Made by a program: the position numbers and the translations under genes. Shown one piece after another: positions 1 to 25,608 of a DNA stretch of 59,482 bases. Numbering within the stretch: position 1 is the stretch's first letter; every line of letters starts with the position of its first letter. The stretch spans positions 1 through 59,482 of the forward strand of contig JALHMH010000029.1 of assembly GCA_022844165.1 (NCBI GenBank), written 5' to 3'. The DNA comes from Lysobacterales bacterium (GTDB lineage: Bacteria > Pseudomonadota > Gammaproteobacteria > Xanthomonadales > SZUA-5). A model generated the notes under the pieces. The model had not been told where the DNA came from. It made no database searches and saw only the letters and a list, made by a program, of their open reading frames with translations.

Positions 1-3000
1 AGCTGCTCAGCTCCACCCGCCCCGCGCGGCGCTGCTCGCGCACCCGCCCTTCCCCATCGCGCACGTAGTGGGTGACGATGCCATTGCGATCCGTGAAGCT
101 CAGTTCGCGATCGAGTGCGTCGTAGGTCCAGAGTTGTGTCGTGCGCGTCGGCGAGGGTGGATCGCGGCTGAGCGTGCGGCGATTCAAGTCGTCGTATTCG
201 TGGTTTGTGACGCGCAGCAGCCGGTCGCGTTCCAGCAGCACATTGCCGACATCGTCGTACTCGACGATCGAGGTGCCGGCGCTGTCGCTGCGGCTGACTT
301 GCCGGCCCAGGCTGTCGTAACCGTAGGTGATGATCGTCGTCGCGCCGCGCGGATCGGTCTCGGTCTTGATCTCGTCGTGTTGCGTGTAGGTGCGCGTCCA
401 GGTGCGCGTCACACCCGGCGCCAGCGTGCGCGTCTCGGTCAGTTGCCGGCCAAGATCGTCATAAGTGTAGGTGGTCACCGCGTTCGCGGCATCTGTGCGC
501 GTCAACACGCGCCCCACTTCATCGTACGTCAGCCGCTCGATATCGCTGATGCCATCGAAGCTGCGCGTGCGGCGATTCAAGACATCGTATTCGTATTGCA
601 GCGGCGTGCGGCTGGGGCGCGTCTCGCTGAGCAGATTGTTCGCCGCATCGTAGGTGAACGTGCGCGCGCGGCCTGAGCCGGGCAGCGTTTCCGTGATGCG
701 CCGACCGCGCGGGTCGTAGCTGTAACTGGTGGTGCGGCCGGTCGGATCCGTGGCCGATGTCATTTGCCCCTTGGCATCGTAATCGCTCAGCCACGTTGCG
801 CCGCTGCGATCGGTGCGCGTCTTCTCGCGGCCACGTGGGTCATAGGTAAACGTGCGCGTAAACGGCCCGACGGTCTCGCTGGTCAATCGACCCATGCCAT
901 CGTAGACCAAGGTCCACACGCGCAGCGGCTCGACGCGGCTGGTCACGCGGCCAAAACCATCCAGCGTCAGCGTTGTGGCGCGCGCCAGCGGATCGACCAT
1001 GCCGGTGAGCCGGCCCTCGCCATCGCGGCTCTCAGTGGTGAGCAACTCCTCGCTGCCGAGCAGCGCGATCTGCGCGGTGCGCGCATAGCGAGCGTGCTGA
1101 TAGCGATAGCGCATCGTGCGGACCTCTGCGCCACTGCCCACGCGCTGCTCGATCAGATTGCCGACGCGGTCGTAATCGCGCTCGGTGCGGCGGCCCAGCG
1201 GTTCCACACTGAGCGCGCGCCGATCCAGGCTGTCGTACTCGTGCGTGGTCACCTCACCAGCGAAATTCTGTTCGCGGATGATGTTGCCGACTGCGTCGTA
1301 ACCGGTGGTTTGTGTATCGCCATCGGCGTTGACCCGCGATTCTTCGCGGCCGAGTTCGTCGAGGTGAATCGTTGTGATGCGCCCCAGCTCATCGCGCTCG
1401 ATGCGTTGATCGCTCGCATCGTTGTAGTCCACCGTGCGTTTGGCGCCGCCCGGGAACTCGGTCTCGGTCATGCGATCCAGACCATCGTACCGATAACGCT
1501 CAATCGCACCCAACTCATCGCGCCGCGAAATGCGCCGTCCGCGGCGATCGTTGTCGAACTGCACGAAGCTCGCATCGGCATACGTCTCGCGCACGAGAAC
1601 GCCTTGCGCGTCATAGTTGTACGTTGTCTGCGCACCACTGAAATCGCGCCAACTGCTGATATCGCCGTTGCTGGCAATGCCCCAGGTCTCGCTGATGCCA
1701 GCGCGGGTACGACCAACGCGATTGCCGCGGCTGTCGTACTGATACAAATCGCCATCGCCGGCAAAATCGATGCTGCTCGCCATGCGATTCTTGATCCACG
1801 GCCGCGTGAAACTGGTGTGCTCGCGATACGTGGCGGTGCGCACCAATGGCGTGCCGCGACCCGCGTGACGCTCCAGCGTGAGGTTGCCGAAGGCATCGTA
1901 CTCGTACGTAACCGTTACACCTTCGCGATCGATGCGCGAAGCCGGCAGACGCTGTGCCAGATTCCACGTGGTGGTTGTCGAACCAATGGGATCGGTCACC
2001 AGGTCCACGCCGCCGAATCCATTCATGCGATACGTGGTGTCGATGTTGCGCGGATTGCTTACCACCGTCGTCACCGGCTGACCCAGACCCCGCAGCCCTT
2101 GGAAATCGAAGGTGGTGGCTTGCGCCAACGCATTGCGTTTCTCGATCACGCGCAGCTCGGGAATCGGGATGATGTTGCCACCATCCGGGATGTTCACCCA
2201 CTGCTGCTCGTAGTCCAGCGACAAAATCTGGCGACCGCGAATCTCATCCCTGACGGCAACCATTCGCGAGCCGAGGCGGTGGAAGCTGCCATCGACTGCG
2301 ATCACCGCACCAAAGTCGTTGTACGCGTAAGACTCGCGATAGTTCGCACCCACACGGCGCGCGTCGATCAGCTGCGCCTTGTCGTCGTACTCGAACGACA
2401 AATCGAACCCTTCCGGCCCGGTGACACGCACGATCAGCGGCATCAAACCGACTTCGCCCGGCTCATTGCCCGTGGATCGTTCTTCGTACGTAAACTCGAT
2501 GCGACCACGATCGCTGACCAGCGCACTGACGACAGGCAAACGGCCCAGGCGGATGTACTCGCGCTGCACCCGATTGCCGTTGGTGTCTTCGACGAAGTCC
2601 AGGCGGATCGCCTTCTTGCCGTGCAACGGACTGATGTACGTCAGGCTCGGCGGGAAGTGGTAACGCGTGCCGTCTTTGGCGTACACATCGTAGGCACCAC
2701 TGGCATCGCGAACCAACGTGCCGTGATAACCGTTGGTGGCGCGATACAGGGCGCTGCCATCCGGCCCGGCGCCGTCGAACACAAACTCCACACCCGCACC
2801 TTCGGCGCCGGTGACCATGATCGTGCACGCGCCTTGTGTCAGCTCGCTCTCAAGATCGGTCTGCCAACCGCGGCCCAGCACACTGACTTCGTTGCCACGC
2901 GCGCTGGCCCAGGTTCGTGCAAATCGCAGCGACGGGCCGCGGCCTGCCAACTCCAGATCGGCGCGCGAAACGGTGGTCTGGCCATCGAACAAATCGACAT

Positions 3001-6000
3001 CGGCGACCACGGTGTGACCCAGCGCCAGATGGTCGCGCCGGTTTTGCTTGTGCACCAGATTGGCGGTCATCGTTTCCGACTCGCCGTCTTCGTCGGTGGC
3101 GGTGATGCGCAGCTCAAACTCGCCGATTGGTGCGTCGCTGCCGATCTCTTCGCGAACCGTGCCGGCGTCGAACCATTCATCGCTGATCAGCGTTGCGGCG
3201 GAGATCGGGGAAACATTGCCGAATTGGTCTTTGCGATAGGCGTCGACGCGCAAGCGCGCGCGGGAGGCCAGGAAGACGATCAGCTCCCCGCCGGCATCGC
3301 AATAGGAGCCGCTGCTGACGTTGATGTCTTTGCTCAGCACGCTGTTGCCCCCGAGCAACGCCAGCGCACGCGCTTCGTTGTTGCTCAGCGAGGCCGCTGC
3401 GCCCGAGTGCACGCTGACACCGGCCAGAATGTCAGTTTCAAAACTGAGTGTGAGCGGCTCGGCTTCGATGCGATAGGGCGTTTGTTCGTTGATCGCGAAC
3501 TTGAGCTTGTAGGTCTTGCGGCGATCGTAGGACCACCCTCGGCGGAAAAGCACAGAGTAGTCCCCTTGTCCTGCCCATTGCTGGACAGAACTCTGCACAT
3601 CACTGTCCGCCAATAGCTCTAGATTCGTCTGGCCTGAAAAGTACTGACCCGGGGCGATCGATAGATTGGCAAGAAAGCCGGATGAAACCTCGCCGACAAG
3701 CCCTATCGGAATAATTTGAGGCGAAGTCGACACAATCCGCGGAAGTACCGAATAGACGTCGGGGAAGTCCCCTTCGAGTCGGTAGCGTAATCCTGCAGGA
3801 CCTTCCTTTTCAAACTTGTATCCACTGCGCGCAGCGCCTGGTTGACTGGGCACGCGGTTGTTGAACTCGATCTTCCCTGCTCCGACAAAAGATGGGCCGG
3901 AAATAGAGCCAGTATCCGCGCGCAGAGACAGCGAAGACAGGTCAAAGCTTACGTAATCCCCGGTCGAAGTATCGATGTACAACCTTGGGAAACCGTACTC
4001 CCACTGCGCAACCCCAGAGGGCGAGTCGCTGGGCCTCAAGAAGTAAACACTCCTCGGAACTGGCAACCAGTGGTTGGGGAGCGCGGCTTCGATGGTGTTG
4101 CCAATACCGTACGCTCCGTAGGTCGCGGAATGACCAATCCGGCCAAACAGCCCCTGAATACTGTTTGCATCAGAATCCTGCAGAACAACAGGCCGTACGA
4201 TCACTGTAGATGTAAGCTGAAGATAGCAAGGGTCCGAATTCGGTTCGTCGAGCAACACTGGTTTCGATATCGGGCTCAGTCCGCCGGTTGAAACGGTCAA
4301 CTGCAGGTTTGCATAAACCGCGTCCGGCGGGACGACGTGGAAAAGGCTTCGTCGGCTTAAGGTACGCAGGCGCAAGGTTGGGCGGACACAGCCATGACCT
4401 GTCAGCAGAACTTCCTGTGTCGGACAATCTCCTGGTTCGAAAAAACCGCCCGCATTCACCGGCCCTTGATTCGGGCATTGACTTAAGAGTGCGTATTCCG
4501 AACGCAGATCCACAAACTGGTTGGCGATGTAGTTTCCGAACTCGTCCTTGACGCCAACGCTCCAGGTGTAGAAACCAATACCGGGAATCATTCGCAACGG
4601 GGCATTCGCATCGCCTGTCCTGGGTGGAGGAATCAACTCCAGCTCATGTGGATCGCCCGGCCTCGCATAGGCAAAATAGTCCTCCCCCGCTACAACACCT
4701 GCGTTCGAATAGCGCGAATTCGCGCGAATCCGAACTTCGTTGTACAGCATGAACTGCGGGTAGTCGTCCGGCGCGTCCGGGTTGCTGATGTATCTGCCGA
4801 AGGTGCTCGTGGTCCCGAGTTTGAAGCCGGCGCTCACAAGCCCGCGCTGATCGCTGGTGAGCGCAACGGTGCTGGCCGATCCGGCGGCGGAACTGAGCGA
4901 ACCATTGCCCTGGGTGACCTCAAAATGCACCGTGGCGCCGACCACGGGGCGACCGGTGGGATCTTCCACTCGCGCGCGAAGCGGCGTTTCTAACACTTCA
5001 TCGACGGTGCCCAACTGATCCTGCGAATCGTCGAACAAACGAATCGCAAACACCTCCATCGGATCGGTGTTTGGCCGCGGCGCGTAGGGGCTCGATACCA
5101 ACGCGGCAAGGCTGGGCAAGAACCACTGATCGATCGGGATAATGGTGATGCCACCCGCCAAACCGCCGCTGAGGAAATAGCCGCTGGAACCGTTGGCTGC
5201 GGTGGTCTGCCAACCCGAGCCGCGCCATGGCCCCTGGATCAGCGGATTGACCGGAATACGAACCGTGTATCCCTGCGTCAGTTGCGCCAGCAGCGTGGCT
5301 TTGACGCTGTCTGGGTGCCCCAGACCCGCGACCTGCGCCGCGCCGGCCGATCCGCTCAGCTCAACCATCGGCTGGCCAGCGACATGCGCCAGCGCCAGCA
5401 CACGATCGGCAGACAGCGACGGTACCGCCCACTGCTCTTCGAACACCAGGTGTTCGCGATAGCTGCCATCGAGCGCAGCCAGACTCAGCCAGGCGCTTTG
5501 ATCGGCCCCTGGGCCAAGAACGGCCACGCTGCGCGCCGCGGCGTCGAGCGCAACACTATCGAACCGCAAAGCGGTGGCCACACCACCCTGACGTTCGACA
5601 TCGAATTGTGTGAGCACCAGCGCGATGGATGGCACCGGCTCGATGACTGTCACGCCCAGCAGGTTCGCCAGTTCCTGACTATCGCGCCGCCACTCGGACG
5701 AGTAACGTGCACCGAGATTGGCGAACACCCGCGAGGCGGGCGGCTCGCCGTCACCCAGGACCGTGTCTGCCACTTCAACCGCAGGCCGCGGCGCGCCGGC
5801 ATCGAGCACCACCGCCGCCATGCCACCGGCGATCAACTGCTGCTCGATGACTCGCTCCTGCCCAATGGTGCTCAAGCGCACGCGGATCATCAGCGCATGA
5901 GCGGCGGCGACCGAATCACCGGTAGCGAGCACGTTGCCATCGACGCTGATGCGCGGCCGCAACTCGATCAGAAACGGCGGCACGGAATCCAGTCCGCCGC

Positions 6001-7453: not shown

Positions 7454-10400
7454 GATCGGCCTCCGCAGGCGCATGGCCAATCCAGGGGAAGCGCCCCGAC
7501 TCGAAGACGCTGGACGATGATCGGGTTGCTCCGCGTTCGGACTTATCATCTGCCTTGTCGTCTGCGGATTCGGCACGCGATGTGCCTTGCGCATCGCTGG
7601 CGCGCGAGGTTTGCGAGCGCTTGCCCCAGGATTCGATCCAGTTCTTCAACACCGCTGGCATTTCCGTGCACGTCGACTTTTCAAATCCGGTGGCGCCGCT
7701 GCGCGCTTCGAAACCGTCGGCAAAACCGGTCCAGACTTCGTCGCGGCAGATCGGAATCGGGCCGACATCGCGGCGATTGCCGGCGCCGTCTGTCGCACGC
7801 ACCATCAGTACATACGGACCTGGCGCCGGTAGCGACAGTGTTCCGCGCCAATGGTCCGGTGGGCCGGTCTTCACCAGCGGTTGCCAGTCGCCATCGCCGA
7901 CACGCACGGCGACTGTCGCAACGCCGCTCAGCGCGTCCTGTGCCGTCGCCGAAACCACAACAGGGTTGGCAACGATCGCGCCCACGGCAGGTTCGGTGAC
8001 GGTCAACGTTGGCGCCTGCTCATCCAGCACGCCCAGCGCCCGCGTGGCGATCAGGGTAAACGGCGTTGTTGGTGCAATCGCGCGTCGCCAGTGCACGTTG
8101 ACCTGCAGCGTACCGGCCGGCCAGGTAGCGCTCGGCAACGAAAACGGCAGGTCGACCGCCTCACCCAAGACGAGCATTCGTGACCACTGCAAACTCACGA
8201 CATTGCTGCCGTCGGCGCGATTGACATCCAGGCGCAACTCGTCGGCCTGCGGGCCAGCGTTCTGGGTGGACGTGACGCGCAGATTGCCGATCAGCTCCTG
8301 GCCATGCGGCAGCGATTCCGGCAACGTCAACGCGGCGGTGATCGGCGCGGTGTTGTCGCCCAGCCGCAGCACGCGCACCTGGCGGATGCTGCTCAGGTTG
8401 CCGGCGCGGTCGCGCGATTGCAGCCGCAACGTGTTTTCGCCGGGCACCAGCCAGATGCCGGGGAAGGTCGCGATACCTTGAGCGTTGCTGCGCACCAGAT
8501 AGGGCGGGTTGGTGTCGAGCAACACCACGTCGGTGTTGGGTTCGGTACTGGCGATCAGCGTAATCACAGTCTGCGGCGTAGCGCTGCCATCCACCGGCGA
8601 GGTAATGGCCAGCGGCGGCGGCGTCAGATCGATCGTAAACCGTAGCTCACGCTGATTGCTGTTGCCAACAGCGTCGGTGGCCTCAACACGCAACAGGTGT
8701 TCGCGCTCGGCGTTGATGGTGGTGCCGGAGACAAAGAGCTGACCATTCAGCGTGACCGACTGACTGCCCGGATTGGCGTCGCTCACGACGATGACTGGTG
8801 TCAGCGGCGACGCGCTCAACTGGCCATCCAAGACGCCGCTGATGTCGATCGTCGGCGGCGTGCCATCGATGCGGAACGTGCGCGCCTGCGGCGGTTCGGT
8901 GCGCTGATTGCCGGCACCATCGAGGGCGCGCAACTGCGCGGTGTGGTCGCCATCGCTCAAGCCGCTCATCGACGTCGAATAGGCCGAGCCGCCGGAGGGC
9001 GACATCGGACGCGGCGCTTGGGCATCGATCACCAGTTCGACGCGATCGATTGGGCTGAGTGCATCGTCGACAGTCGCTGCGGCGACGAAACTGGCCGGCA
9101 GCAGCTGGTTCGTCGCTGGCGTGACCAGCATTGCGTTGGGCGGCGTGAGGTCGGCCAGCGTCAATGCTTGCTGCGCCAGGGTTGCCCAGACCAGTTGGCC
9201 ATTGCTGTCGCGCAGCTCGGCCTCAAGCAGCAGCGCATAACCGCCGAGCGGCAAGGTTGCGGTTGCAAAACTGAAGGCAAAGGGCTGCGCCACATTCGGT
9301 ATATAGGTTTGGGTCCACTGCCGCTGCGCAATCGACTGTCCGGTCGCGGTGGACAACAACGACAAACGGGCCGCGACGTTTTCCAGCGGACTGGCGGCGC
9401 TGGAGGTCAGCACCGCGGTACCGGACAAATCCGAACCCGGCTCCATGCTCGTTGGTGCGGAGATGCTTCCGGTCAACAAACCAACCGTCGCGGTCAGCCT
9501 CGTGACCGTCAGTTCGGCGGGCGTCGGCGAGGCGTTGCCCGCACGATCGACCGCCGTGGCGCGGAACAGATTTGCGCCTTCATTCAACGGCACGGCGCTG
9601 AACAACGCGCTGCCATTGGCGCCAGCGGTGGCCTGCCACTGAGTACTGCCGCGTTGCAGTTGCACCTGCGCCAGGGCTTCGGTTTGTACGCGCACGTCGG
9701 TGCTCGCGGCGTTAATCACAGCATTGGCGGCCGGGAACGTAAAGGCCACCGTCGGCGCTGTTCGATCGACGACAAAACTGCGCGTCTCCTGGCTGCGATT
9801 GCCGGCGCGATCGAGCGCAATCACCACCAACGTGTAGTCGCCATCGTCGCTGATCGTGGTGCCGGAAGTAAAGGGCTGGCCGTTCAACAGCGTGGTGGTC
9901 GACGCCAGATGCAGATCGGTCGCTTGTACGACCGGCGTCACTGGATTGGCATAAATTTGTCCTTCGCTCACGCCGCTGATGACGATCACGGGCGGCGTGC
10001 CATCGACGATCACGCTCCAAGCCGGCGTGCTGCCGACATTGTCGTACGCATCGCGAGCTCGCGCGCTCAGAGCCAATGGCCCATCGTTGGCCACGCTGAC
10101 GAAGCCACGGTATTCACCGCCGCTGCCGCCGCTCAAGCTCATCGCCTGGAATGCGCCACTCGCAACACTCAATTCGGTGCGACTGACAAAACTCTGCTGA
10201 TCCACCGCGCGCACCAGCGCGTCGAACTGGCGGCGCACGATGGCACCGGGTTGCGGCGCGACGATGCTCACCAGCGGCGGCTCGCTATCGACGACCAACA
10301 CCGTGCGTACATCCAATACACCGCGCAACGGCCCGCTTTGAACTTCAAGGATCAACAACAGCGCGCCAGGTGTCATCGCGCTGGCCGGCAAAGCAACGTT

Positions 10401-16400: not shown

Positions 16401-19400
16401 TGGCGCCAGACGCTGAATCACCGGCGCAGTGCGGTCGACGATCACCGGGAAATCGGCAACGTCGACCAGCGCCGCCTGATCCGGATCGATCACGCGCAAG
16501 CGCACGAAGTAGCGGCCGTCGGGCAGCACCGTGCTGGCATCGTTGCGCCCATCCCAGCCGCGCGTCTGCGTGCCGTTCAACAGCGTTTGCGCTTGCACGG
16601 TGCGCAGTGTGTTACCACCCTCATCGACGACCAGCACACTGGTGAAACCGGTGCGCGATTGTTGCCAGTTCAGCTCAGTCGCATCGAGCACACCATCGCC
16701 ATTCGGCGATATCAGCGGCACCGTGAGCGCCGCCTGCGTGATCAGCGGCGAACGTTGCGGAATGATCACCTCACGTTCGACCATCGATTCATGGCCGACC
16801 CGGTCGACCGCTTTCGCGCGCAGCCGATAGGTGCCCGGCGGCAGCGGGTTGTGCCAGAGGTGGGTCGCGACAAACGGACCCTCGTGGCCTTCGCGTACAT
16901 CGATACGCGCGATTTCCGTGTAGGTACTCGCGCCCTGGCCACGCACGGCAAACTCAACCGCGCGTAAGTAGACATCGCTGGCCGTTGCTCGCAAGTTCTC
17001 GAACAGCGCAATCGTCGCCCCGGCTGCCGGCGCGTTCCAGGCGATGGTGGGGGGCGTGGTGTCGATGCCAACCGGGACGACAAATCGCAATTCGTGCCCA
17101 CAAGTATCGATCGCATTGAGCACAAACACATACTCGCCGTCGGCTGCAGCCGCGCCATTGATACGACCATCCCACGCCCATGCCACGTCGCCACCGGTCG
17201 TTTCACGCGTCGGCAGCGTCACCAACGCAGGCCCCTGCGCCGACCATTCGCCGATCCAACCGACACTAGTCAACGTGGGTCTCGAGCCAACCGCGTGCAC
17301 TGCTGCGGTAACCGTCATCGCTTCGAACGCCGTGGCGACAACATGCGCAGCCTGCTGCAAGTTCGGCGAAAACAGGTAGGCACTGCGCGCCAGCCCTGCA
17401 GTCATTACAGTTGGTAGGATCACCGCACTGGGCGAGCGTCCGATGCGGGGTTGTGCAACAGAAACACGGCTATCGACGATGACGGTGCGTTGAACTGCGG
17501 GTGAGAGGTTGCCGCAAAACTCGCTGCGAATGCTGAGCTGAGCAGTTCCGTCGTCACCCCCGGACACAGGTTCCACTCCGAGGGAAAAGGCAGCGGGATT
17601 CGCATTTGCTCTTCCGACCCCATTCGGACGTGGCAATCGTTCAACCCCTGTGAAAGTTCTAGAAGAGCCGCCGTCGATCAACGCCTCGACCTCAATCGAA
17701 CGAACGAACATGGAACGAACTTCGCCCGCGACGGCGTTGTTATCGCCGAGACACACTCGATCGCCGTTCAGCGGCTGATCGATCACCGGCGACGGTGGCA
17801 TCGCTTCGCTTCGACCCACCGTCGAGCGGTATTGGCCATCGGCTGTGACGACATCGACGTTAAACTCGCCGGTGGGCAATCCAGTCAGATTTAGGCGAGC
17901 ACGTCCCGGCCGCTGCTCGATGATTTGCAACGCAGTAGTTTCGCCATTTCGAGGGTCCGTCCAATGAGCGCTTATGGCGCTCTGCAGCAATGGCACTGAC
18001 ACCCAGGCACTACTCGCACCCACCGCTTCGCACAATTCGACCTGGTTTCCTGGAGCATTGCCGCCACTGCCACCTGAGGTGCTGTCGCCAGGCGGCGGGT
18101 CGATTTCGACCATGTTGGAAGTTTGCCCGTTCGGGCCGCGAAAACGAAGTTGCACCTTTGCGCTCGTCAGCCACCCTAACGGCACTCGCGCATAAAATTC
18201 CGAACGCGCAAAGCAGCTCGTCTCTCGCTCGGGAACGTCGGATGCGGCGACCAGTTGGAATGGCGTCGAGATCCAAGCCGAAGAACCAGTGCGCCGTTCC
18301 AGAACCCAACCGATTGGATTGGACGTCAACAGCTCCAAGTCCATCCTTGGCGGAGTTGTTTCCGGCCTTTGAAGCACAACCAACTCACCGCGACCCGGCA
18401 ATGACCAGTTCTGCGCTTGAAGCCGCCCAGACTGCACACCGAGCCCAGACAACGCCACCGACTGTGATCGCAGGTTACCGCCGCGATCGGTGCCCAGCAC
18501 TCGGAACTCGCCAGATCGCACTTCGGCCGGTGTCAGCGATGCCGTGGCTTCGATGACGCCGTTTGAACCAAAATTGCCGATCGCGTAGATGTTGTTCCAA
18601 ACACCCGCGCGGCGCTCCTGCAACCTCACCTCACCCCAGTTCGCATCACCCGCGTGAATGGATAAAACACCCGCAAAACCACGCACAAACGGCCCAGTAT
18701 CGGCATTTTGGCAAGTGGCGCTGCCCGGTAGCGATTCGCTCACTTGGATCACCGGCAAGCTATTGTCGATGGTGACCTGCACGGCTCGATCGTTGACCAG
18801 CAGGCGATACAGCCCATCGGGCAAGACCTCGCCGCTCGCGCGACGACCGTCCCACGTGTAGGTGTAGGTTCCGGCGCTTGCGTGGGTGCGTTCCACGGTG
18901 CGCACCAAAGAGCCTGCGTCATCGACGATGCGGATCGAAATCTCGGCGGGCGAACGTAGCTCGTAGGTCAGCGTCACGCTGTCCTGCACACCATCGCCAT
19001 TCGGCGAGATGAACTGGCGATCGGCGCGCACCAGGCCCAGGGCCTCGATGGAAAACCACACGACTTCGCGCTCGCTGATGGCTTCATTGCCGGCACGATC
19101 CTGCGTTCGCAGGCGCACACGATAGCGGCCTGGCGCGGGTGGCGACCACGCGCCCAGGATCGTGTCATCCAAGGGCTCGATACCGGCAAAAATTTCGGTC
19201 CACGTCGATTCGCCGGTGCGCTGGTACGCAACACTGTAGCCTGCGAGATTGACATCGTTCGCATCGCCACGAATCAGCAAGGTTCGTAGCGCTGCCTCGT
19301 ATTCGATGCGCAACCCGGCCAGCCCATTGGCGATCGATGACAGGGCCTCAACGCGCTCGCCATCGCATTGCGGAGATGAACCGAACGCCCGCATCCAGGC

Positions 19401-22400
19401 GATGCGCCCATCGCCTGCCAGTGCCTCTGGATCCTGCGTCGCTGGTGTCGCGATACCGGGCCGCAAGGGCCACTCGCCGAGACCTCGTTCCACAGCAACA
19501 CCGTTATCGCGACCTAACAATTGAAGCTCGCCATTGAGCCAATGCTTGGGCAGCAAATCGTCGAACGCATGCGTCTCACCGTTGGGCAAGATCATGAACC
19601 CACGCGAAGCGATGGCACCCGCCGTGGATCGATCGATGTCCTGATACGCAACATAAGTGCCGGCCACATGCGATTCGTCCGGCGACCAGAGAACATTCTC
19701 GACATGAAGTCCCAGCGGATAGTCCGCATTAAACGGCTCAGCATCCGGATCGGCCGGACTGAGATCGACTTCGGTGTGCGTACCGCTCTGCAAATCCCAA
19801 AGCCGGGCGCGGGCCGCTTTGCCATGCGTCGTCAGCATTCTTGCGCCCGAAGGACTAACGCTGACCGAATAGTTCTCCTGGCCAAATTCTGCGCTGAAAA
19901 GCGCGGTCAGCGAGCCGCTCTGTTCGTCGATGCGCAACACGCGCTCCGGATCAGCGCCCCGAAAGACTGGTGTGTCCTCAGTCGCCCAATAGAAGGCTCT
20001 GGAAAATCGGCTGTACTTAAACTCACCAAACTGCGGATGCGGCGTGACCCCGGTATCGACATCCATCGCACCGTTCAAGCCAATCAGCTTAAAGCGCAGC
20101 GGCTCGCCCAGAAGGCGAATCAATACCCGTTCACGACCGACTACCGGCACGGTGGCCGAATCCATCCCCGCGCTCTCGGGCAACGACTGCGCCTGACCCG
20201 ACGGACTCACCGCGATCAGCGTCGCACCCAGAAAGATCCGATGCCCGCTCTGCAATTGCCCAAGGTAGCGAACGGCATTTGGCACGATCAGCGGTGGATC
20301 CAGCGCGCTGCCGTCGCGACTGCTGATGCGTCGCAGATGCAAACCATCGGCCGCTCGGAACGTCAGCGACAGCGCGTCGGCGCTGTCCATCCACAGATGC
20401 CAGCCCTGAAAATCGAAAGTATCGGTTGCACTTCGCGCCAGCAACAACCTCGGCGGCGAACCATCTTCGGCGATGCGATAGATGCCCTCGCTGGCCGGCG
20501 CGCCGGTGCGATTCGCCGCGCGCACAAAAGCCACGTTCGACCCAGGGTAGGTAACCGCACCCACCGGATAAGTAGATGCGCCGGGCCAGGCGTTGATGTC
20601 GCAACTGAGCGGCGTCAACCGCGCGTGGCCGCTGTTCGCGGCGAGCACCAGCGGCGAGCGATTGGTGTCGAGCACCACTTGCAGGCGTTTGAGCTCCTGG
20701 TGATTGCCATCGGTCAGGATCACATCGTAGCGGTCGTCGAGCGCAACGCGATTGTCGGCGCGGCGGCCGTTCCACGTCGCGCTGAATTGCGCTACCGCAC
20801 CGCCGCTCTCAAAGCTCGCCACTTCCTCGCCCCAACTTGCGACGATTCGCAATCGCTGCACGCTGGGCGTCGGCAGTCTGGACACGATCACGGTGGCATC
20901 AGCGATGCCATCGCCATTCGGCGAGAAAAACGGTTCGCTGGCGTAAAAGTCGGCATCGACCGGGGCCAGATTCAGCACTACCTTGTTGTCGTCCTCGCGG
21001 CCTTCGGGCACAGAATTAGCGCGATCCACCGTCAGCTCGATTCGCGCACTGGAATTCTGCGGGCGCGTGAAGTTGAACGTGACCGTTCGGCTTTCGCCGG
21101 CCGCCAGATTGCTCAATGTTTGTGCCGGCGCCAACGCCACATCGGCAACGGCATCGCGCAGATCGATGCTGGCGCTTGCCACGGGCTGCTGACCGGTGTT
21201 GCGGACGATCGAGGTCAATTCGACACTGGCACCGGGTGCAGGTGCACTCGGATGGGTTCGGGTGTCGACGGCCGTCAGCTGCAGATTCGGCAGCGCCAAT
21301 ACCGGCAGCGTTTGCAGACCATCGTTATCGCTTTCGTCGGCTTCGACAATGGCATTGTCGACATCGGCGCGCGCCAGCAGCTGTTGATCGCCAGCCGCTG
21401 CGATGCTGGCGATGGCCACCACAACATCGACGCTGGCGCCCGCTGCGAGTGCACCGACGGGCGCCCTGCCCAGCACCGTGAAGTCCGACGTAGCGATGGG
21501 CGCGGAACGCAGCTCCAAAGTCGACTCGACGGCGTTGTGCGCGCTGTTGTTGTGGACCCGGACACGCACTGTCGCCGGCTGTCCTTGCAGCGCCGGCGAT
21601 GGCGACGATTGCCAGCCTGCCGGATCGATACGCAGATTGGGCAAAGTCGACGCGGCGACATCGAACGCCAAATCGACGTTGTTGTTGTCTTCGCGAATTT
21701 CGACCACGGCATTGTCGGGATCGACCGCTGCCAGCAGCCGATGCGCGCCCGATTGTGTTGGCGTCAGCGGCAGATTACGCGTCGTCGAACCGCCTGCGGC
21801 CACCTGAATTTGCGGTTCGCCCAAGATCACAACCGAGTTGTCTGGCCGGCGCACGCTGACACGCAACCGGGTCGTCGGCGAATCACGCGTACCCAGATTG
21901 CGCACCACCAGCGTCACGCTCGTCGGCGTACCCTGTTGCGGATTTTGCGGCAACACGACTTCGGCGGTTAACAACGCCAGATCGACCGTCGGCTGGCGAT
22001 CGATGGTCGCCTCGGCGCGGTTGTTCGCCTCGTTGGCTTCCACTGTCGCATTGTCGGGATCGATCTCGACATTGATTCTCGAAATATCCAGATCGTCGAT
22101 GGTGATCGAAGTGCTGATCGCAACTCGCCCTTGCGCAGGCAACGTGCGGATGATGGTGGCCAACGCACGGAGCTCGCCAAAGCGCCATCCATAGATGCGG
22201 ATCGGCACATCATCAACTGCTGCCTGCCCGAGGTTCTCTGCGACAAAACTCACGTTCAACGTTTGCGGAACCGTGGTGACCACATTCGGCGCCAACTCAA
22301 CGCGGCCAAGGGCAACGGCAAAATCCGGCAGCGCTGGCGCGGGCGAGATCGTCATGCTTCGCGCCGCCTCGTTATTGGCTTCAATGCCCTCGTTGATGGT

Positions 22401-24563
22401 GTTATCGGCATCCAGCCGCACACGAATGTTTGGACTACCCGGAACCAGCACGGGCGCAGCCAGATCACGGATGATCGTGCTGCTGGCACCGGCAGCCAAC
22501 AATGGGACGTCGCCCTGATCGAGTATTTGCCAGGCCCCGGCGTCGTAACGCACCTCAATGGCGTAACGCGAAACCGGCGCCGGTTGTTCGCCGCGATTCA
22601 TCGCGGTGAATCGCACTTCGATGTTCTGTCCCTGCACCGAAGGATCCGGTCGCACACCCAACTCACCTTGGACAGCCAGATCCGGCAACGACCGAATCGC
22701 CAGGTACTGCACGGCCCGCGCCGTTGCGGCGATGCCGCCATCCCAACTGCCATCGACTCGCTGCGTCGCCGTCAAGTGCGACTCGGCACTGATGACACGG
22801 GTGTCGGCGAGCATTGCGGCGGCACCGAATGCGGCGAGCGCGGTCGCGGTTTCGATCGCTGTGGCCGTGGCATCGCTGCCAAAACCGCCACTGATACGCT
22901 GCCAACGGAACAGCGCGTCTGCGTGGTGAGTTGTAGCGCTGGATCTGGCCAGCGCATGGACGGCCGCAGCCGTGGCCAAGAAGTCGCATGCACCGCCCGG
23001 TTGCAATGGCCAGCAGTTGTCTGTGGCATTGCGCCAGGCAAGCAAACGCGACTGCGCCGTTTGCAACGCCGAATTCGGAATGCTGCTCAACGTAGCGCGC
23101 GCTTCCGCCAACGCCCGCAGCGCGATGGCGGTGTCGAGAATCGCGCCGGTGTGCGCTGCGTCGAAACCGAAAGCACCGTCGCTGAGCTGACTCGCCAGCA
23201 GCGTATTGGCCGCCACTGTGCGCGCTTCGATACCGAGCCGATCGGTTCGCAACAAGGCCGCCAACTCATCGCGATTGTTGGCATTGGTTGCAACAAGGCG
23301 CGACGCCGCCGCAATCAACGCAGATTGGTGCGCTGTAGCCGCCGTTTCCAATGCGAGCACGGTATCGACGCTATCGACGATGCGCGTCGCCGCTTTGTCT
23401 TGCCAAAGATCATCGTTGCGTTGCGCCACCAGGAACTGGCGAGCGAGCGCCAGATCGGCGGTCGTTCGCAAGCCAGCAGTAGAACCGACGCCGATGGGCA
23501 ATCCACGTGGCGGCGCTTGCGAATCCGGCAAGGTGCCGAGCACCAGTTGGCCGCGCCCCCGAGTGATCGCCGCAAAGCGCGTTTGTGCATGCCCGCGCAA
23601 TTGCGTCACGCGATCAATGACCACGTCCGACGGCGGCCGATTGGCAGCCACCAGCAGTACCAGCGCTGCGGTGAACGACCGTTGCGTGTTCGGGTAAGCC
23701 GGCGCCCTGGGTCCGAGCGCCGCTAACACGCCGGCGGCGCTGACGGTCGCTTCGCTGCCCGACACCACTCTGCCGACGCTGGGAATTTCATCGCCGCTCA
23801 AGTCCGCCGTGACGATCAGGTGCGTGTCAGGCAGTTCATCGGCATCGAGAAATCCGCCCAGGTACAAATCCAGCGGACCGTAGGCATCGTGCACGACAGC
23901 CTCACGAAAGCGACCGTTGGGCAGTGCCTGCCAGCGTGCGCCAAACATGACGGATGCATCCGAATGGTACTTCGACGACCAGTGCCCACCGGCCGTCGCC
24001 AGTGCAACCGCGTCTGCGCCAGCACCGACGGAAAACGGTACATAAACACCCCACTGATGCATCACTTCGTGCATCAGCGTATCCAGCAATTGATCGTAAG
24101 CAGGTGCCGAAAAATTCGGCAACAACAGCCGACCGTGCAGATCGATGACCGCCTTCAAACGCCCTGCGCTACCGAACTCGGCGCTCAGGTCCATGATCGG
24201 GCGGCCAATGCCAACGACGTCGTTCGCGACCTGCCAATGCAATCCATTGACGTTGGCACCCAAATCCACGACGAAATCCGGCGCCACCACGATAAAGTCG
24301 TAGTGATCGCCTAACTCAGCCAGGACGGTCGTTGCCAGTGCCTGACGGCGCGCCGCGTCTGGGGTGCCGTCCGGCAAACGGGCGTCATAGCGGCTGTTGG
24401 TTTCGACGATCAAAAGATGCCCGGATCGCGTCGCTGAAAACGACTTCTGCATCTTCTCCGTCAGCGCCTGCGCTTTGGTCTCGATGACGTCTGCCGAGGC
24501 GCGACTGCCGACCAGGACAAATAACAGCGCGACGAATGGCAGGACGAAACAACGAGCGTTCAT
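7443..24563 (-). CDS. Giant (5706 aa) secreted modular protein: zinc metallopeptidase domain, prenyltransferase/squalene-oxidase-type repeats, CARDB, FlgD-Ig, Fn3/Big and beta-propeller modules
   Basis: Long ORF with Sec signal (..LLFVLVGSRASA); HEVMH at 24057-24071; QxxDG(A/S)(F/W) repeats; CARDB signatures (PDL...N.G...DPDN.V.E..E.NN); three (F/I)SPNGDG motifs; repeated DxTPP/DRAGN Ig motifs. Confidence 0.92.
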   Translation of the reverse strand: MNARCFVLPFVALLFVLVGSRASADVIETKAQALTEKMQKSFSATRSGHLLIVETNSRYDARLPDGTPDAARRQALATTVLAELGDHYDFIVVAPDFVVDLGANVNGLHWQVANDVVGIGRPIMDLSAEFGSAGRLKAVIDLHGRLLLPNFSAPAYDQLLDTLMHEVMHQWGVYVPFSVGAGADAVALATAGGHWSSKYHSDASVMFGARWQALPNGRFREAVVHDAYGPLDLYLGGFLDADELPDTHLIVTADLSGDEIPSVGRVVSGSEATVSAAGVLAALGPRAPAYPNTQRSFTAALVLLVAANRPPSDVVIDRVTQLRGHAQTRFAAITRGRGQLVLGTLPDSQAPPRGLPIGVGSTAGLRTTADLALARQFLVAQRNDDLWQDKAATRIVDSVDTVLALETAATAHQSALIAAASRLVATNANNRDELAALLRTDRLGIEARTVAANTLLASQLSDGAFGFDAAHTGAILDTAIALRALAEARATLSSIPNSALQTAQSRLLAWRNATDNCWPLQPGGACDFLATAAAVHALARSSATTHHADALFRWQRISGGFGSDATATAIETATALAAFGAAAMLADTRVISAESHLTATQRVDGSWDGGIAATARAVQYLAIRSLPDLAVQGELGVRPDPSVQGQNIEVRFTAMNRGEQPAPVSRYAIEVRYDAGAWQILDQGDVPLLAAGASSTIIRDLAAPVLVPGSPNIRVRLDADNTINEGIEANNEAARSMTISPAPALPDFAVALGRVELAPNVVTTVPQTLNVSFVAENLGQAAVDDVPIRIYGWRFGELRALATIIRTLPAQGRVAISTSITIDDLDISRINVEIDPDNATVEANEANNRAEATIDRQPTVDLALLTAEVVLPQNPQQGTPTSVTLVVRNLGTRDSPTTRLRVSVRRPDNSVVILGEPQIQVAAGGSTTRNLPLTPTQSGAHRLLAAVDPDNAVVEIREDNNNVDLAFDVAASTLPNLRIDPAGWQSSPSPALQGQPATVRVRVHNNSAHNAVESTLELRSAPIATSDFTVLGRAPVGALAAGASVDVVVAIASIAAAGDQQLLARADVDNAIVEADESDNDGLQTLPVLALPNLQLTAVDTRTHPSAPAPGASVELTSIVRNTGQQPVASASIDLRDAVADVALAPAQTLSNLAAGESRTVTFNFTRPQNSSARIELTVDRANSVPEGREDDNKVVLNLAPVDADFYASEPFFSPNGDGIADATVIVSRLPTPSVQRLRIVASWGEEVASFESGGAVAQFSATWNGRRADNRVALDDRYDVILTDGNHQELKRLQVVLDTNRSPLVLAANSGHARLTPLSCDINAWPGASTYPVGAVTYPGSNVAFVRAANRTGAPASEGIYRIAEDGSPPRLLLARSATDTFDFQGWHLWMDSADALSLTFRAADGLHLRRISSRDGSALDPPLIVPNAVRYLGQLQSGHRIFLGATLIAVSPSGQAQSLPESAGMDSATVPVVGRERVLIRLLGEPLRFKLIGLNGAMDVDTGVTPHPQFGEFKYSRFSRAFYWATEDTPVFRGADPERVLRIDEQSGSLTALFSAEFGQENYSVSVSPSGARMLTTHGKAARARLWDLQSGTHTEVDLSPADPDAEPFNADYPLGLHVENVLWSPDESHVAGTYVAYQDIDRSTAGAIASRGFMILPNGETHAFDDLLPKHWLNGELQLLGRDNGVAVERGLGEWPLRPGIATPATQDPEALAGDGRIAWMRAFGSSPQCDGERVEALSSIANGLAGLRIEYEAALRTLLIRGDANDVNLAGYSVAYQRTGESTWTEIFAGIEPLDDTILGAWSPPAPGRYRVRLRTQDRAGNEAISEREVVWFSIEALGLVRADRQFISPNGDGVQDSVTLTYELRSPAEISIRIVDDAGSLVRTVERTHASAGTYTYTWDGRRASGEVLPDGLYRLLVNDRAVQVTIDNSLPVIQVSESLPGSATCQNADTGPFVRGFAGVLSIHAGDANWGEVRLQERRAGVWNNIYAIGNFGSNGVIEATASLTPAEVRSGEFRVLGTDRGGNLRSQSVALSGLGVQSGRLQAQNWSLPGRGELVVLQRPETTPPRMDLELLTSNPIGWVLERRTGSSAWISTPFQLVAASDVPERETSCFARSEFYARVPLGWLTSAKVQLRFRGPNGQTSNMVEIDPPPGDSTSGGSGGNAPGNQVELCEAVGASSAWVSVPLLQSAISAHWTDPRNGETTALQIIEQRPGRARLNLTGLPTGEFNVDVVTADGQYRSTVGRSEAMPPSPVIDQPLNGDRVCLGDNNAVAGEVRSMFVRSIEVEALIDGGSSRTFTGVERLPRPNGVGRANANPAAFSLGVEPVSGGDDGTAQLSIRSEFCGNLSPAVQRTVIVDSRVSVAQPRIGRSPSAVILPTVMTAGLARSAYLFSPNLQQAAHVVATAFEAMTVTAAVHAVGSRPTLTSVGWIGEWSAQGPALVTLPTRETTGGDVAWAWDGRINGAAAADGEYVFVLNAIDTCGHELRFVVPVGIDTTPPTIAWNAPAAGATIALFENLRATASDVYLRAVEFAVRGQGASTYTEIARIDVREGHEGPFVATHLWHNPLPPGTYRLRAKAVDRVGHESMVEREVIIPQRSPLITQAALTVPLISPNGDGVLDATELNWQQSRTGFTSVLVVDEGGNTLRTVQAQTLLNGTQTRGWDGRNDASTVLPDGRYFVRLRVIDPDQAALVDVADFPVIVDRTAPVIQRLAPAGSISNGRGAFTINLVEANPRLLTASATPPLPGLLTQFDGAGNIDLVNLDDVPEGSYQLNLVAEDAGGNRSTLVAPMIIDRTPPETSLTTPAANAYVTRLRGPIAVVGAASDTRLADWQLTLEGASSSSIATQNNAASGPVTVQWNGVAADGAYRLRLLARDTAGNSGFAETPIVLDNTPPLARIDAPSDNGFVGAIFDVAGAATDANIDSYEIAIAPRPNGSFTTLALGNEDASGVIASVGAPTNDGAYALRLRVADKAGTVSEDFVDVQIDQTPPPPANGLSAERQGQRAARLTIQASAHPDVVAWRVLRNGTAIGETSTTTYLDSDLNDGTYAYRVQALDRAGNASTPSNEARVRIDSTPPEVLITAPGAGERIGGNIAIAGRAYARDDFDRYELSVEVLQPPTAPSSIVQRASAVLGGLLGTWDSSAIATAPVRLHLRALDVSGNAAQVSTEVIIDNEPPAAPTGVAVVEQGGDVRVTWNANTETDLRGYLVYRDARLLQGSPDGDLRQLAIAQTNWLDVGVGDGVFAWRVAAIDTTGNLSAFSDPASLTRSGRPPRVNLIRPLDGTQFDTRVAVRGQSADQDLVEVIFESRSGTGAWAPFAPAFSSPPFDSDFVPAPRAFGPYQLRARSRDSEGLIDAAPPEITVEHRDLTAPPRPSALQVAVDGGDATLTWTAVVAEDLANYRVERAPGGGEFQLLTTVSSSTLSHVDAGLANGPYRYRVLAVDSFDNRSVPSPVVSALIYQPSVSQPFAPTLESSSEVRIGSPVAGNVEIEQTTASGTVSLPPTSIGAGQISPRTLALSDGENLFRFVIRDAQGQRSKATEISVLKSAIPPVPTGLTSTVNGYVATLGWTVANHLYPLGFRVLRGGLPVAPDVTTTPTTVAVQYGQEPPLPAPELNDEDLDSGFGIPAETPLGIDIDLASVAMITEIELLFAAPATMQVELRAGWRAVLVPLTASTQTESHSLRLTLAQPYRSTRLRLDVAAAAADYELREVRVRTRPVQSATELTETLTDGRHRYRVLTINEHAFSSAASEFHDVDVGDATPPAAPVLSGSVNSSTAQLTWTHPGTDLAAFWVFRGSTRIATLTDITRRSYDDPQLLNGAYGYQVYAVDAVGNTAESNLVVLTIDVGSLSPPVGLSATAVAGGGAIDLAWQPGAGLTPAGYRIRRSLAQDGPFTTLTDVATNQHRDTGLTNGTRYYYRVQARDAIGNLSAESNTASAVPFSDNPVISPLFVFPTRYGQSVTVPETQTVVTGRGQPGSTVQVGLARNIASAMVATQMASRNFSLVGDWSPDARHVVVSQALRRATDSAMLAALGPPCGDPQWLNAHDLLVCEVFSDRARIDRIRLPSLHRDTLLEQPQILGFRLSDDGRRLAVIGPTSIEWRLQPNGQWQTIAAASGISWGPRFDPSGRWIVWQSAAGLKRFDVETATTLDLPVELTGNARPSFAKRAPIVLVVGRVGAVTGVYSVHLGTGAATRISVEGASHADFNSDDTLLGVLSASEFRLLRWPDLAAVASLPTQDANDLRQLASDEWRLTFSEQTRIVQAPGTFRIDSQPLQFGENILAAIATLPGQPDSPPALPITVTVPSDGLPDLALRASDITLQPATGTPGSSVRIFTRVRNIGSAGSQATTLQLQLATPSGVSLAPIVVAVAPLASGAERVVAADTPVLQDSGAYSLTARVNPGASMPESSLANNAATRSLIVNADGLPELTLTLDRPVVVPGETLLGNAIVSAGGAAFNGQLRISVFDAQQVLVTQLLQQSINLTTPGASVDRGLQWSPGNVVAGRYLVRATLYSTSGQIVRERELPVDVSALRLLTLTLTPSQQAIAIGTSIDVSAALSYVVGNAVVDGAELRTQLLNASGVTVATRTQALATMTPGFSGSVPIAFISANLAPGAYQIRSEIWAGGQLAEGGAAVTLLASTAPPALSGRWVLPGAPLSAGQGASIGFEVRNTGGVALTDVPVRATVRRQLLDTPLATTDVSLSLQPGALQSGNVALPASAMTPGALLLILEVQSGPLRGVLDVRTVLVVDSEPPLVSIVAPQPGAIVRRQFDALVRAVDQQSFVSRTELSVASGAFQAMSLSGGSGGEYRGFVSVANDGPLALSARARDAYDNVGSTPAWSVIVDGTPPVIVISGVSEGQIYANPVTPVVQATDLHLASTTTLLNGQPFTSGTTISDDGDYTLVVIALDRAGNRSQETRSFVVDRTAPTVAFTFPAANAVINAASTDVRVQTEALAQVQLQRGSTQWQATAGANGSALFSAVPLNEGANLFRATAVDRAGNASPTPAELTVTRLTATVGLLTGSISAPTSMEPGSDLSGTAVLTSSAASPLENVAARLSLLSTATGQSIAQRQWTQTYIPNVAQPFAFSFATATLPLGGYALLLEAELRDSNGQLVWATLAQQALTLADLTPPNAMLVTPATNQLLPASFVAAATVDDALSPIDRVELVIDAQAPRPMSPSGGSAYSTSMSGLSDGDHTAQLRALDGAGNQRTEPPQARTFRIDGTPPTIDISGVLDGQLSASPLTPVIVVSDANPGSQSVTLNGQLFVSGTTINAEREHLLRVEATDAVGNSNQRELRFTIDLTPPPLAITSPVDGSATPQTVITLIASTEPNTDVVLLDTNPPYLVRSNAQGIATFPGIWLVPGENTLRLQSRDRAGNLSSIRQVRVLRLGDNTAPITAALTLPESLPHGQELIGNLRVTSTQNAGPQADELRLDVNRADGSNVVSLQWSRMLVLGEAVDLPFSLPSATWPAGTLQVNVHWRRAIAPTTPFTLIATRALGVLDEQAPTLTVTEPAVGAIVANPVVVSATAQDALSGVATVAVRVGDGDWQPLVKTGPPDHWRGTLSLPAPGPYVLMVRATDGAGNRRDVGPIPICRDEVWTGFADGFEARSGATGFEKSTCTEMPAVLKNWIESWGKRSQTSRASDAQGTSRAESADDKADDKSERGATRSSSSVFESGRFPWIGHAPAEADHAR

Positions 24564-24994
24564 GGCTGCGGCGTTTCCTGGTTCGCGGCTTTCGGAGTTG
24601 CCTGGTCGCCATCAGCGTTCGTCACAACCGCTTTGACCCTTTGCATATGCAGCGCTGCAACCGGTTCCGCGGGTGGCGAATGGTCGTCGATCAGGATTGG
24701 CGCAACCGATGGACTCAACGACAGCACAAAACGCTGGCTCGGTTGCAAGATTCGGCGCAGCTGCACGGTGCTTGCAGTGACGCGCTCCAGGCGCCATTGC
24801 ACCCCAAGATTGTCATCGCGCGCCACCAGCAACAGTTCGCCATCCAGCGAAAACACGGCATGTCCGAGCGCCGCGTCGGTCGCAATCAGCTGCGGCAACT
24901 CGGGCAATTGGTCGTCAGAAAAGCACCAGATCGGCCAAGCGCAAAAAAGCGACAAAGCTACGCGACGCAGCCAAGGCATCGGACGAGTGAACAC
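24560..24994 (-). CDS. Small exported or membrane-anchored protein, possibly GspC/PilP-like beta domain
   Basis: GTG start preceded by strong RBS (TAAGGGGG); N-terminal hydrophobic segment; ATGA overlap with the giant gene start. The fold similarity is by eye only. Confidence 0.7.
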   Translation of the reverse strand: MFTRPMPWLRRVALSLFCAWPIWCFSDDQLPELPQLIATDAALGHAVFSLDGELLLVARDDNLGVQWRLERVTASTVQLRRILQPSQRFVLSLSPSVAPILIDDHSPPAEPVAALHMQRVKAVVTNADGDQATPKAANQETPQP

Positions 24995-25490: not shown

Positions 25491-25561
25491 AAGGAGCTGC
25501 TGACCCGCTCAAAACCCAAAAGCGTTCGATGGCTCGTGGTCGCAAATACGATAGGTACCAG

Positions 25562-25608
25562 AGTCCTTGACGAAGCCGGATCGGCGGTCTGAGGCGAAGC
25601 CTCGCTGG
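25562..25608 (+). repeat. Repeat family B, minimal copy (left and right ends fused)
   Basis: AGTCCTTGACGAAGCCGGATC joined directly to GGCGGTCTGAGGCGAAGCCTCGCT; both ends match the full copy at 53052-53295. Confidence 0.7.

Follow-up and report, generated by a model that had tools for sequence, protein, structure and literature searches.

Known RHS toxins and the present locus

RHS toxins that combine a signal peptide or a transmembrane helix, an inactive transglutaminase domain, and sometimes a bacterial immunoglobulin-like (Ig) domain were described by Zhang et al. 2012 (Biol Direct 7:18), whose accessible text places them under export by Sec and type II secretion (T2SS) and suggests that the dead transglutaminase anchors the toxin by binding peptides. 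Here, we analyze three genes, called S, G, and R, in contig JALHMH010000029.1 of the Lysobacterales bacterium genome GCA_022844165.1. The whole contig, of 59,482 nt, is the window. Gene R encodes a protein that resembles the class of Zhang et al. in having a signal peptide, a transglutaminase fold that lacks its triad, a bacterial Ig domain, RHS repeats, and a variable toxin C-terminus. By sequence comparison, the dead fold stands after the signal and before the RHS repeats, which makes R a member of this class. For that class the same accessible text names no signature neighbor genes (a "-" in Table 1), whereas the genes next to R, which encode a giant of about 5,700-6,400 aa (G) and a small protein resembling the homology region (HR) of GspC (S), are conserved.

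Two further sets of RHS proteins are close to R, and both were compared with it by description. Marutani-Hert et al. 2020 (PMC7259588) reported that Bcn-A of Xanthomonas perforans, a 1,398-aa RHS bacteriocin, is active in the supernatant and inactive from an xpsD mutant. In the accessible parts of the literature examined, this T2SS dependence is the sole experimental hint on how a Gram-negative RHS capsule may be exported without a type VI secretion system (T6SS). Like R, Bcn-A is an RHS-family antibacterial toxin of the Xanthomonadales with a downstream immunity gene (only a candidate in the case of R). Unlike for R, the available account mentions no transglutaminase and no giant or GspC-like partner, and the accessory open reading frames (ORFs) 2-4 are small and downstream. 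For Xanthomonas and Ralstonia, a 2025 preprint (10.1101/2025.05.08.652813) linked large Rhs families (XRhs F VIII and RRhs F II) to gspG and, in its available part, predicted them to be T2SS cargo. They share with the present trio a paralogue of a T2SS component next to an Rhs toxin, but this paralogue is the pseudopilin GspG, whereas the trio has a GspC-HR-like protein and a giant.

The T6SS Rhs effectors (RhsA 7q97, Tse5, Tre23, Tse15) share with R the RHS shell, DUF6531, and an Rhs core with DPxG, whereas R has a Sec-type N-terminus and lacks PAAR, prePAAR, and VgrG by Pfam. WapA and the bacterial teneurin-like proteins are Sec-exported YD/RHS toxins, as R is predicted to be, and a 2026 paper on the latter (PMC13018210) predicts, in its accessible part, Sec export for Gram-negative YD-shell toxins. 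Teneurin-like proteins combine an FN-plug, an NHL propeller, and a YD shell in one superfold. For the propeller R has no Pfam match, so that R is not counted among them. CdiA/CdiB resembles the function that we propose below for the trio: its long filament on the cell surface varies in the central parts and ends in a polymorphic toxin at the C-terminus, and an immunity gene and orphan cassettes go with it. It differs in that here fiber and capsule are two proteins, there is no two-partner secretion (TPS) domain, and no TpsB was found in a search whose control was silent.

A previous sequence-only reading of the window stated that it knew of no characterized system with this composition. This was overstated, as the class of Zhang et al., Bcn-A, and the gspG-linked Rhs families are in print. 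In the accessible parts of these sources, both the association of a signal peptide, an inactive transglutaminase, and RHS repeats, and the existence of T2SS-linked RHS toxins, are already published. What appears to be new is the conserved partnership of an RHS protein with a giant Ig fiber, carrying an HExxH domain not described before, and with a soluble GspC-HR-like protein. Our literature search, which did not cover supplementary tables, returned no description of such a trio. The operon is a defined and conserved genetic unit for the study of T6SS-free RHS export and delivery, it is present in culturable isolates (Tahibacter soli, Tahibacter aquaticus, and Dokdonella fugitiva), and it brings in two families that had no annotation, that of S, with its 218 representatives, and the N-terminal HExxH domain of the giants.

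A conserved operon of three overlapping genes

The genes S, G, and R are co-oriented on the minus strand and together occupy positions 2-24994 of the window in our ORF reading. All features of these genes given below are on this strand. Gene S (24560-24994) encodes 144 aa from a GTG start, and its stop shares an ATGA with the start of G at 24560-24563. Gene G (7443-24563) encodes 5706 aa and overlaps R by 11 nt at 7443-7453, where the ATG of R is at 7453 and the TGA of G at 7445-7443. Gene R (2-7453) is represented by its first 2484 codons and is open at the 3' end, where the end of the contig cuts the gene. Shine-Dalgarno-like sequences (AAGGGGG, AGGAAA, and GGAGG) precede the starts of S, G, and R. 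The co-orientation and the two overlaps had been noted in the sequence-only reading, and their coordinates read exactly as given there. It had also ascribed a hydrophobic signal-like segment to each N-terminus, and this was confirmed by hydropathy: each of the three combines a hydrophobic segment and small residues at positions -3 and -1, and all 22 N-termini considered (3 of the operon and 19 homologous) have a 12-residue Kyte-Doolittle mean of at least 1.75 within about 30 residues. All signal-peptide calls in this work are made with this hydropathy heuristic and not with SignalP.

The distribution of the trio was studied in a set of 39 genomes that share the genus, family, or order of the source, with the window's genome among them. 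In 21 of them there was a match to the first 1000 aa of R, and in 15 to the N-terminal domain of G. Nine other genomes have both matches on one contig and on the same strand, 17-20 kb apart. In 8 of these 9 clusters a homologous ORF of 125-201 aa lies directly upstream of G (the ninth is masked there), and start/stop overlaps of 4 nt recur across the homologous clusters. Wherever the gene order was readable in the related clusters, it was S-G-R (9 of 9). A further scan, limited to a single genome for each species, gave 33 R-like loci, and upstream sequence was present for 31. In 27 of the 31, a giant open frame with 655 to more than 3,300 codons comes in from the edge of the locus and leads into the R start, and in one of the four exceptions (L055) the N-terminal domain of G does sit at the expected place. 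Through these loci we reached five further genomes, in which all six modules have the order S-G-R. The carriers are labeled Rhodanobacteraceae/Lysobacterales (Dokdonella, Tahibacter, Rudaea), Wenzhouxiangella, and "Ca. Multivoradales". Across the class, an even sample of 400 scored genomes had the N-terminal domain of G in only a single genome apart from the window's own.

The recurrence of the trio elsewhere, on which the sequence-only reading depended, is thus established in related clusters and in further genomes. The sequence upstream of S shows no conservation, so the three genes move together as one unit. They are translationally coupled and co-inherited. S-G-R is a real, conserved, T6SS-independent RHS toxin module of Xanthomonadales-type bacteria. 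Some genomes have two modules: in Tahibacter soli (L053/L060) they are about 53 kb apart, and in genome G016 (L030/L031) both are cut by contig ends and one of the giants is fragmented.

The RHS protein and its probable continuation on another contig

Protein R starts with a signal-like segment (MRAERSRIILQTQRSGWRSVWALALLAMCSAVGSAPPSASA, 7331-7453). An upstream ATG at 7594 was rejected as the start, with an overlap of 152 nt with G and a position 47 residues ahead of the signal segment. The ATG at 7453 is the likely start because the signal-like segment directly follows there in the homologues. About 150 aa separate the signal from a transglutaminase-like core (6629-6877; Transglut_core E 5.2e-10). 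Its catalytic Cys/His/Asp triad reads Asp239/Thr311/Ala, a replacement conserved in 10 of 10 sequences, and its motif GNDVDQ (nt 6728-6745) is invariant in the same number. The earlier description of R as a pseudo-transglutaminase RHS protein is therefore upheld, because Asp/Thr/Ala stand in place of the catalytic triad. A Big_1 Ig-like domain (4832-4990) lies inside a conserved pre-RHS region of about 1100 aa, followed by DUF6531 (2783-2998, E 8.9e-09) just ahead of the RHS repeats. The N-terminal part of the RHS/YD shell (2-2737) has nine stretches of RHS_repeat in Pfam (PF05593, E 6.7e-62), and TIGR01643 matches on the parts located on contig C57 (see below).

The solved chains closest to the RHS shell are 7q97 (E 1e-30) and then 8h8a, 8qjb, Tse5, and 9ifo, i.e. 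T6SS Rhs and teneurin-like proteins. The resemblance of the YD shell to the teneurin-like chains 9ifo and 9pt5 has an E-value of 1.6e-17. When the first 1000 aa of R were searched against the PDB, only marginal matches to transglutaminases were found (E 0.12-0.24).

The window is the entire contig C29 of a genome in 59 contigs that is 99.97% complete, so that the sequence to the left of the window is another contig. The assembly was broken by a repeat: positions 1-155 of the window match C57:5436-5590, where an orphan fragment with an RHS C-terminus has its 5' edge, at 98.7% identity. Contig C57 itself starts with a second repeat, as C57:1-1088 equals C57:6409-7496 at 98.6%, with positions 1-896 identical. 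Together, these repeats predict that 819 nt, or 273 codons, are missing in frame from C29 to C57:1, and the same gap measures 272-279 aa in five full-length homologues. The full-length R inferred in this way has about 3,438 aa, compared with open frames of 3,400-3,700 aa in the homologues. In public sequencing runs (Logan), one contig includes the window from position 156 on (reverse complement) and then continues for 177 nt along the repeat to the equivalent of C57:5767, with 2 differences. Public-run contigs are too short to span the full gap between C29 and C57, and one of 1395 nt, with 14 differences, fits neither of the C57 copies. On this sequence evidence R very probably continues on C57. 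We stop short of certainty because repeats in a metagenome-type assembly can mislead.

The first part of C57 has an Rhs core ending in NPTVYVDPDGR, a C-terminal region of 318 aa (CT1), and, 10 nt later, an ORF of 184 aa. Next come a PstI-like restriction-modification pair and an orphan RHS fragment, truncated on its 5' side, that has a core of its own (FLDPDGR) and a C-terminal region of 358 aa (CT2); an ORF of 138 aa starts 4 nt after CT2. A DUF4238 gene, an IS21 IstB gene, and a WYL regulator are last. Both RHS ends have Rhs_assc_core (TIGR03696), with 50.3 bits for C57:1-2046 (cut-off 32.5). The sequence-only reading had suggested looking for an Rhs core end with DPxG, a variable C-terminus, and a small downstream gene to the left of the window, and all of these are found if C57 is the continuation. 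Provided that the join holds, R would thus have an Rhs core with the PxxxxDPxG autoproteolysis motif.

Beyond DPxG the seven C-termini that we compared diverge, with HNH-like His motifs at the ends of two homologues. For the last 158 aa of CT1 there are nine matches at 49-67% identity, several of them in proteins with RHS, PT-HINT, PT-TG, or DUF4150 (PAAR-like). The C-terminal part of CT1 is thus, judging from these matches, a predicted toxin that behaves like a shuffled cassette. By their position directly downstream of CT1 and CT2, the ORFs of 184 and 138 aa are candidate immunity genes. There was no match at E<=10 in Pfam for CT1, CT2, and both candidate immunity proteins, nor in the PDB for CT1 and CT2. 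The cassette-like part of the region after DPxG is restricted to its last 115-160 aa. The first ~165 aa (C57 1090-~1590) are Gly/Ala-rich and hydrophobic, align with the homologues of genomes G006 and G028, and may be a pre-toxin or translocation segment.

Other observations concern the remainder of C57. The restriction-modification pair (C57 2761-5213), located between the CT1 immunity candidate and the orphan cassette, consists of an Eco57I-type methylase of 498 aa and a BsuBI/PstI endonuclease of 340 aa. The DUF4238 gene (C57 8934-10142) has a 97-nt tandem duplication (9719-9908) at 99% identity, which repeats about 31 residues in frame. Sequence nearly identical to C57 4800-7600 is present in drinking-water metagenome runs (share 0.77, several runs of one study) and in activated-carbon runs (0.31), and the best-matching run may be the sample from which the window was assembled. 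There was no RNA run among the public runs with this region, which therefore give no evidence on expression.

The same genome has a second transglutaminase-RHS locus, on contig C31 (L002, C31:38157-58156; positions 372-18317). It encodes, in this order, a protein of 3107 aa, a transglutaminase-RHS ORF of 2006 aa, an RHS ORF of 653 aa, and an ORF of 208 aa without Pfam match at E<=10. The 3107-aa protein has NHL/Vgb_lyase propellers, MG2, CARDB, and pAdhesive_15 domains, and no S-like gene is found upstream. The two RHS ORFs are in one frame and are parted by a single TAG (L002 15695-15697), which may reflect a nonsense mutation, a mistake of the assembly, or read-through. From this locus, large partner proteins may be a general feature of the transglutaminase-RHS class.

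The giant protein

Protein G has a predicted signal peptide (MNARCFVLPFVALLFVLVGSRASA, followed by DV; 24492-24563) with a hydropathy maximum of 3.15 and a putative cleavage site between ASA and D. The N-terminal domain (aa 28-~350, 23514-24482) is putatively zinc metallopeptidase-like, with HEVMH at aa 165-169 (nt 24057-24071). Residues H165, E166, H169, H194, W195, and D232 are the same in all 9 sequences compared, each of which has a single HExxH at the conserved position. Searches of Pfam, NCBIfam, and the PDB returned no family for this domain. It is followed by alpha/alpha-toroid-like repeats (aa ~360-640, 22644-23486), with weak PDB profile matches to squalene-hopene cyclase repeats; some homologues carry PF13243/PF00432 in this region. 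A thioester (alpha-2-macroglobulin-like) reading of the toroid region was rejected, as there is no CxEQ motif.

The rest of the protein comprises a CARDB array (aa ~650-1195, 20979-22616; E 2.3e-55, 5 stretches) and a body (7446-20978) in which the Pfam segment scan found FlgD_ig/CHU_C-like, Big_7, Big_13, Big_3, fn3, and CARDB domains. Three poorly conserved inserts that match no family break the body, at aa ~1300-1800, 2000-2400, and 4000-4300. The nine giants have 5706-6417 aa (5836-6417 in the homologues) and are colinear end to end, with an occupancy that is mostly 0.9-1.0. The least conserved parts are the three inserts and the last 300 aa. The sources name the homologues only "Ig-like domain repeat protein". 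In the closest relative, genome G002 (L014), the giant is split at about the domain boundary into an ORF of 442 aa with the HExxH domain (1638-2966) and one of 5289 aa (2954 onward), which could be a frameshift or a real split.

The small protein and its likeness to GspC

Protein S begins with a signal-like segment at its N-terminus, continues with a beta domain that resembles the GspC HR (aa ~30-85), and ends in a tail rich in Pro. Taken alone, the protein (P0003) has no match in Pfam or NCBIfam. A profile built from 9 positional homologues defines a family of 218 cluster representatives at E<=0.001, nearly all of 100-215 aa, whose members are named "hypothetical" in the source records. We aligned this family with 18 true GspC HR domains from the relatives, and hhalign gave a probability of 96% (E 4e-9, 57 columns). 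As a yardstick, the accepted relationship between GspC HR and PilP gave 57%. The value of S against PilP was 58%, and two unrelated control alignments gave 0.3-0.4%. When searched against the PDB, the S profile had 9 matches, the best to GspC 7oio (E 0.031), with 2lnv, 3oss, and PilP 3jc8 also present. Pfam T2SSC is the commonest weak match within the family (8 of 60 members, best E 0.0056). Against single sequences of the genome's own PilP, XpsN-like protein, and GspC, the S profile gave weak values of 3-15%, all aligned at the HR region. The PF11356 profile finds only the GspC of contig C16 in this genome, and not S.

The sequence-only reading had called S GspC-like. At the level of domain and profile this holds, as S carries a predicted GspC-HR-like domain, with the beta-domain signature of the HR that was solved together with the N0 domain of GspD (PDB 3oss). 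For the protein as a whole it does not: S is below the family threshold and is not a GspC, since it has half the length (144 aa versus about 300), lacks the PDZ and coiled-coil domains, and is encoded outside gsp clusters. Orphan truncated homologues of GspC, such as XphA of P. aeruginosa, are known. The signal sequences look cleavable in 9 members of the family and S appears soluble by the hydropathy heuristic, so that the signal is most likely cleavable rather than a membrane anchor. Co-folding of S (aa 28-144, alignment of 60 rows) with N0-N1 of the C16 T2SS secretin (24 rows) returned "no answer" (score 0.00) and was run without controls, and thus gives no evidence either way.

Secretion systems in the genome and its relatives

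Genes of a T6SS might have been present elsewhere in the genome, outside the stretch that the sequence-only reading had covered. We found no TssC, Hcp, or PAAR in genome-wide profile searches for which the E. coli controls were positive. Among the 39 relatives, TssC is found in 2, one of them a carrier of the module (1 of 11 carriers), and it is also found in 1 of the 5 further carriers. The rarity of TssC among carriers means that the module does not depend on a T6SS. The statement that the window lacks PAAR, VgrG, TpsB, and TcA stands for what was scanned by Pfam, i.e. the operon proteins and ten upstream ORFs, but does not extend to the remaining ORFs of the window, which were not scanned, and no search aimed at the VgrG family was made. 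Profile searches of the genome for TpsB (ShlB) and TcA (TcA_TcB_BD) were empty, but their controls were silent everywhere. By Pfam, TPS-type matches are absent from G and R, as are SpvB and TcdB_toxin_midN domains from R. PilMNOPQ and two clusters of T2SS genes are present in the genome, and one of these clusters includes a GspC recognized by Pfam. Overall, the operon appears to deliver an RHS toxin without the type VI injection machine, and a distinct delivery route, as suggested in the sequence-only reading, is plausible.

Proposed mechanism and alternatives

We propose a conserved, Sec-dependent, T6SS-independent polymorphic-toxin operon, a picture that we regard, in its entirety, as evenly poised between right and wrong. 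All three proteins would cross the inner membrane by Sec. With its about 40 Ig-type domains and three variable inserts, G would form a long surface fiber, whose inserts may bind targets, and the dead transglutaminase domain of R would hold the capsule on this fiber or on the envelope. S would be periplasmic, where its GspC-HR-like domain would couple the cargoes to the secretin of one of the two T2SSs of the genome. The HExxH domain of G may process or release a component, and the toxin would act on neighboring bacteria that lack the immunity protein. Three hypotheses of wider use come with the operon: that a cargo-linked paralogue of the GspC HR couples cargo to the secretin, that a giant partner protein is a carrier, and that the "inactive transglutaminase" domain noted long ago links the capsule to this carrier. 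A more specific version makes the operon a secretin-dependent "fiber-and-capsule" machine for toxin delivery that had escaped recognition, in which S is a soluble, cargo-dedicated stand-in for the GspC HR that recruits the T2SS secretin, the inserts of the ~600-kDa G bind target receptors, the dead transglutaminase of R clamps the loaded capsule, and the HExxH domain releases it on contact. We consider this version unlikely as it stands. If true, it would amount in function to a CdiA made of separate parts, delivering RHS toxins in Gram-negatives without a T6SS.

Several points weigh against the proposed mechanism, whose steps were deduced from the comparison of sequences. In S, the missing PDZ and coiled-coil domains, the location outside gsp operons, the scores below the Pfam T2SSC threshold, and the probable lack of a membrane anchor mean that it may do something other than GspC. 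The HExxH domain of G matches no peptidase family in Pfam, NCBIfam, or the PDB. The C-terminal 300 aa of G, which adjoin the start of R, are its least conserved part and so offer no evident docking site. Each of the 11 carriers among the 39 relatives has GspC, but 24 of the 28 non-carriers have it as well, which makes the co-occurrence uninformative. A 600-kDa fiber and an RHS capsule would both greatly exceed the typical size of T2SS cargo. The join between C29 and C57 is inferred, and repeats in metagenome-assembled genomes can be mis-assembled. Finally, CT1, CT2, and both candidate immunity proteins lack a Pfam family, and CT1 and CT2 a PDB match.

The three proteins could be co-regulated but physically independent, with G an ordinary giant adhesin or biofilm protein, R a freely secreted bacteriocin of the Bcn-A type, and S, instead of a secretin adaptor, a periplasmic chaperone or inhibitor for the HExxH domain of G. 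A small beta protein that is encoded next to a metallopeptidase is often an inhibitor of it, S seems to be soluble, with signals of the cleavable type in 9 members of its family, and the transglutaminase-RHS locus on C31 follows a different large protein and has no S gene. Furthermore, the accessible report on Bcn-A (PMC7259588) has it working from cell-free supernatant with no giant partner. However, the strict S-G-R order, the codon overlaps, and the colinearity across an order exceed what is usual for co-regulation, and next to an upstream flank that is not conserved the trio moves as a unit. We therefore see independence as a rather doubtful, though serious, candidate. It is quite unlikely, in our view, that export bypasses the T2SS, by outer-membrane vesicles, lysis, or an unrecognized outer-membrane route, with the HR-like fold of S binding a partner other than a secretin N0. 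With regard to size, both G and R do speak against passage through a secretin, and S lacks the anchor and the C-terminal domain of GspC. The accessible text of PMC13018210 predicts that Gram-negative teneurin-like RHS proteins are Sec/SPII lipoproteins and names no outer-membrane route for them. Yet the available account of Bcn-A, from the same order, includes experimental T2SS dependence (PMC7259588), and S is nearer to the GspC HR (96%) than the latter is to PilP (57%).

RHS capsules are also the BC part of the Tc (ABC) toxins, so that the operon could encode a Tc-like toxin against eukaryotic grazers, with G in place of the A component. The near-identical sequence in drinking-water and activated-carbon runs would fit, as these habitats also hold protists. 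We consider such a toxin highly improbable: R lacks SpvB and TcdB_toxin_midN, no TcA was found (though that control was silent), and G is all-beta and Ig-type, with no family of TcA-like helical channels. The immunity-type genes, the orphan C-terminal cassettes, and the HNH-like C-termini of homologues point instead to bacterial targets.

Surroundings of the operon

The operon part of the window (1-24000) has a G+C content mostly of 0.62-0.66, compared with 0.58-0.62 for positions 24001-59482. The leader upstream of S has no sigma-70-like promoter and no Rfam family, and no tRNA was found in the window. An ORF of 249 aa at 25509-26258 was rejected as a fourth gene of the operon: it matches no family, is Arg-rich, and lies in the flank that is not conserved. 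Farther away, between trpBA and glnA-ntrBC, positions 29161-33833 encode a BNR/Sortilin-Vps10 repeat protein of 1045 aa and an adjoining ORF of 489 aa without a family.

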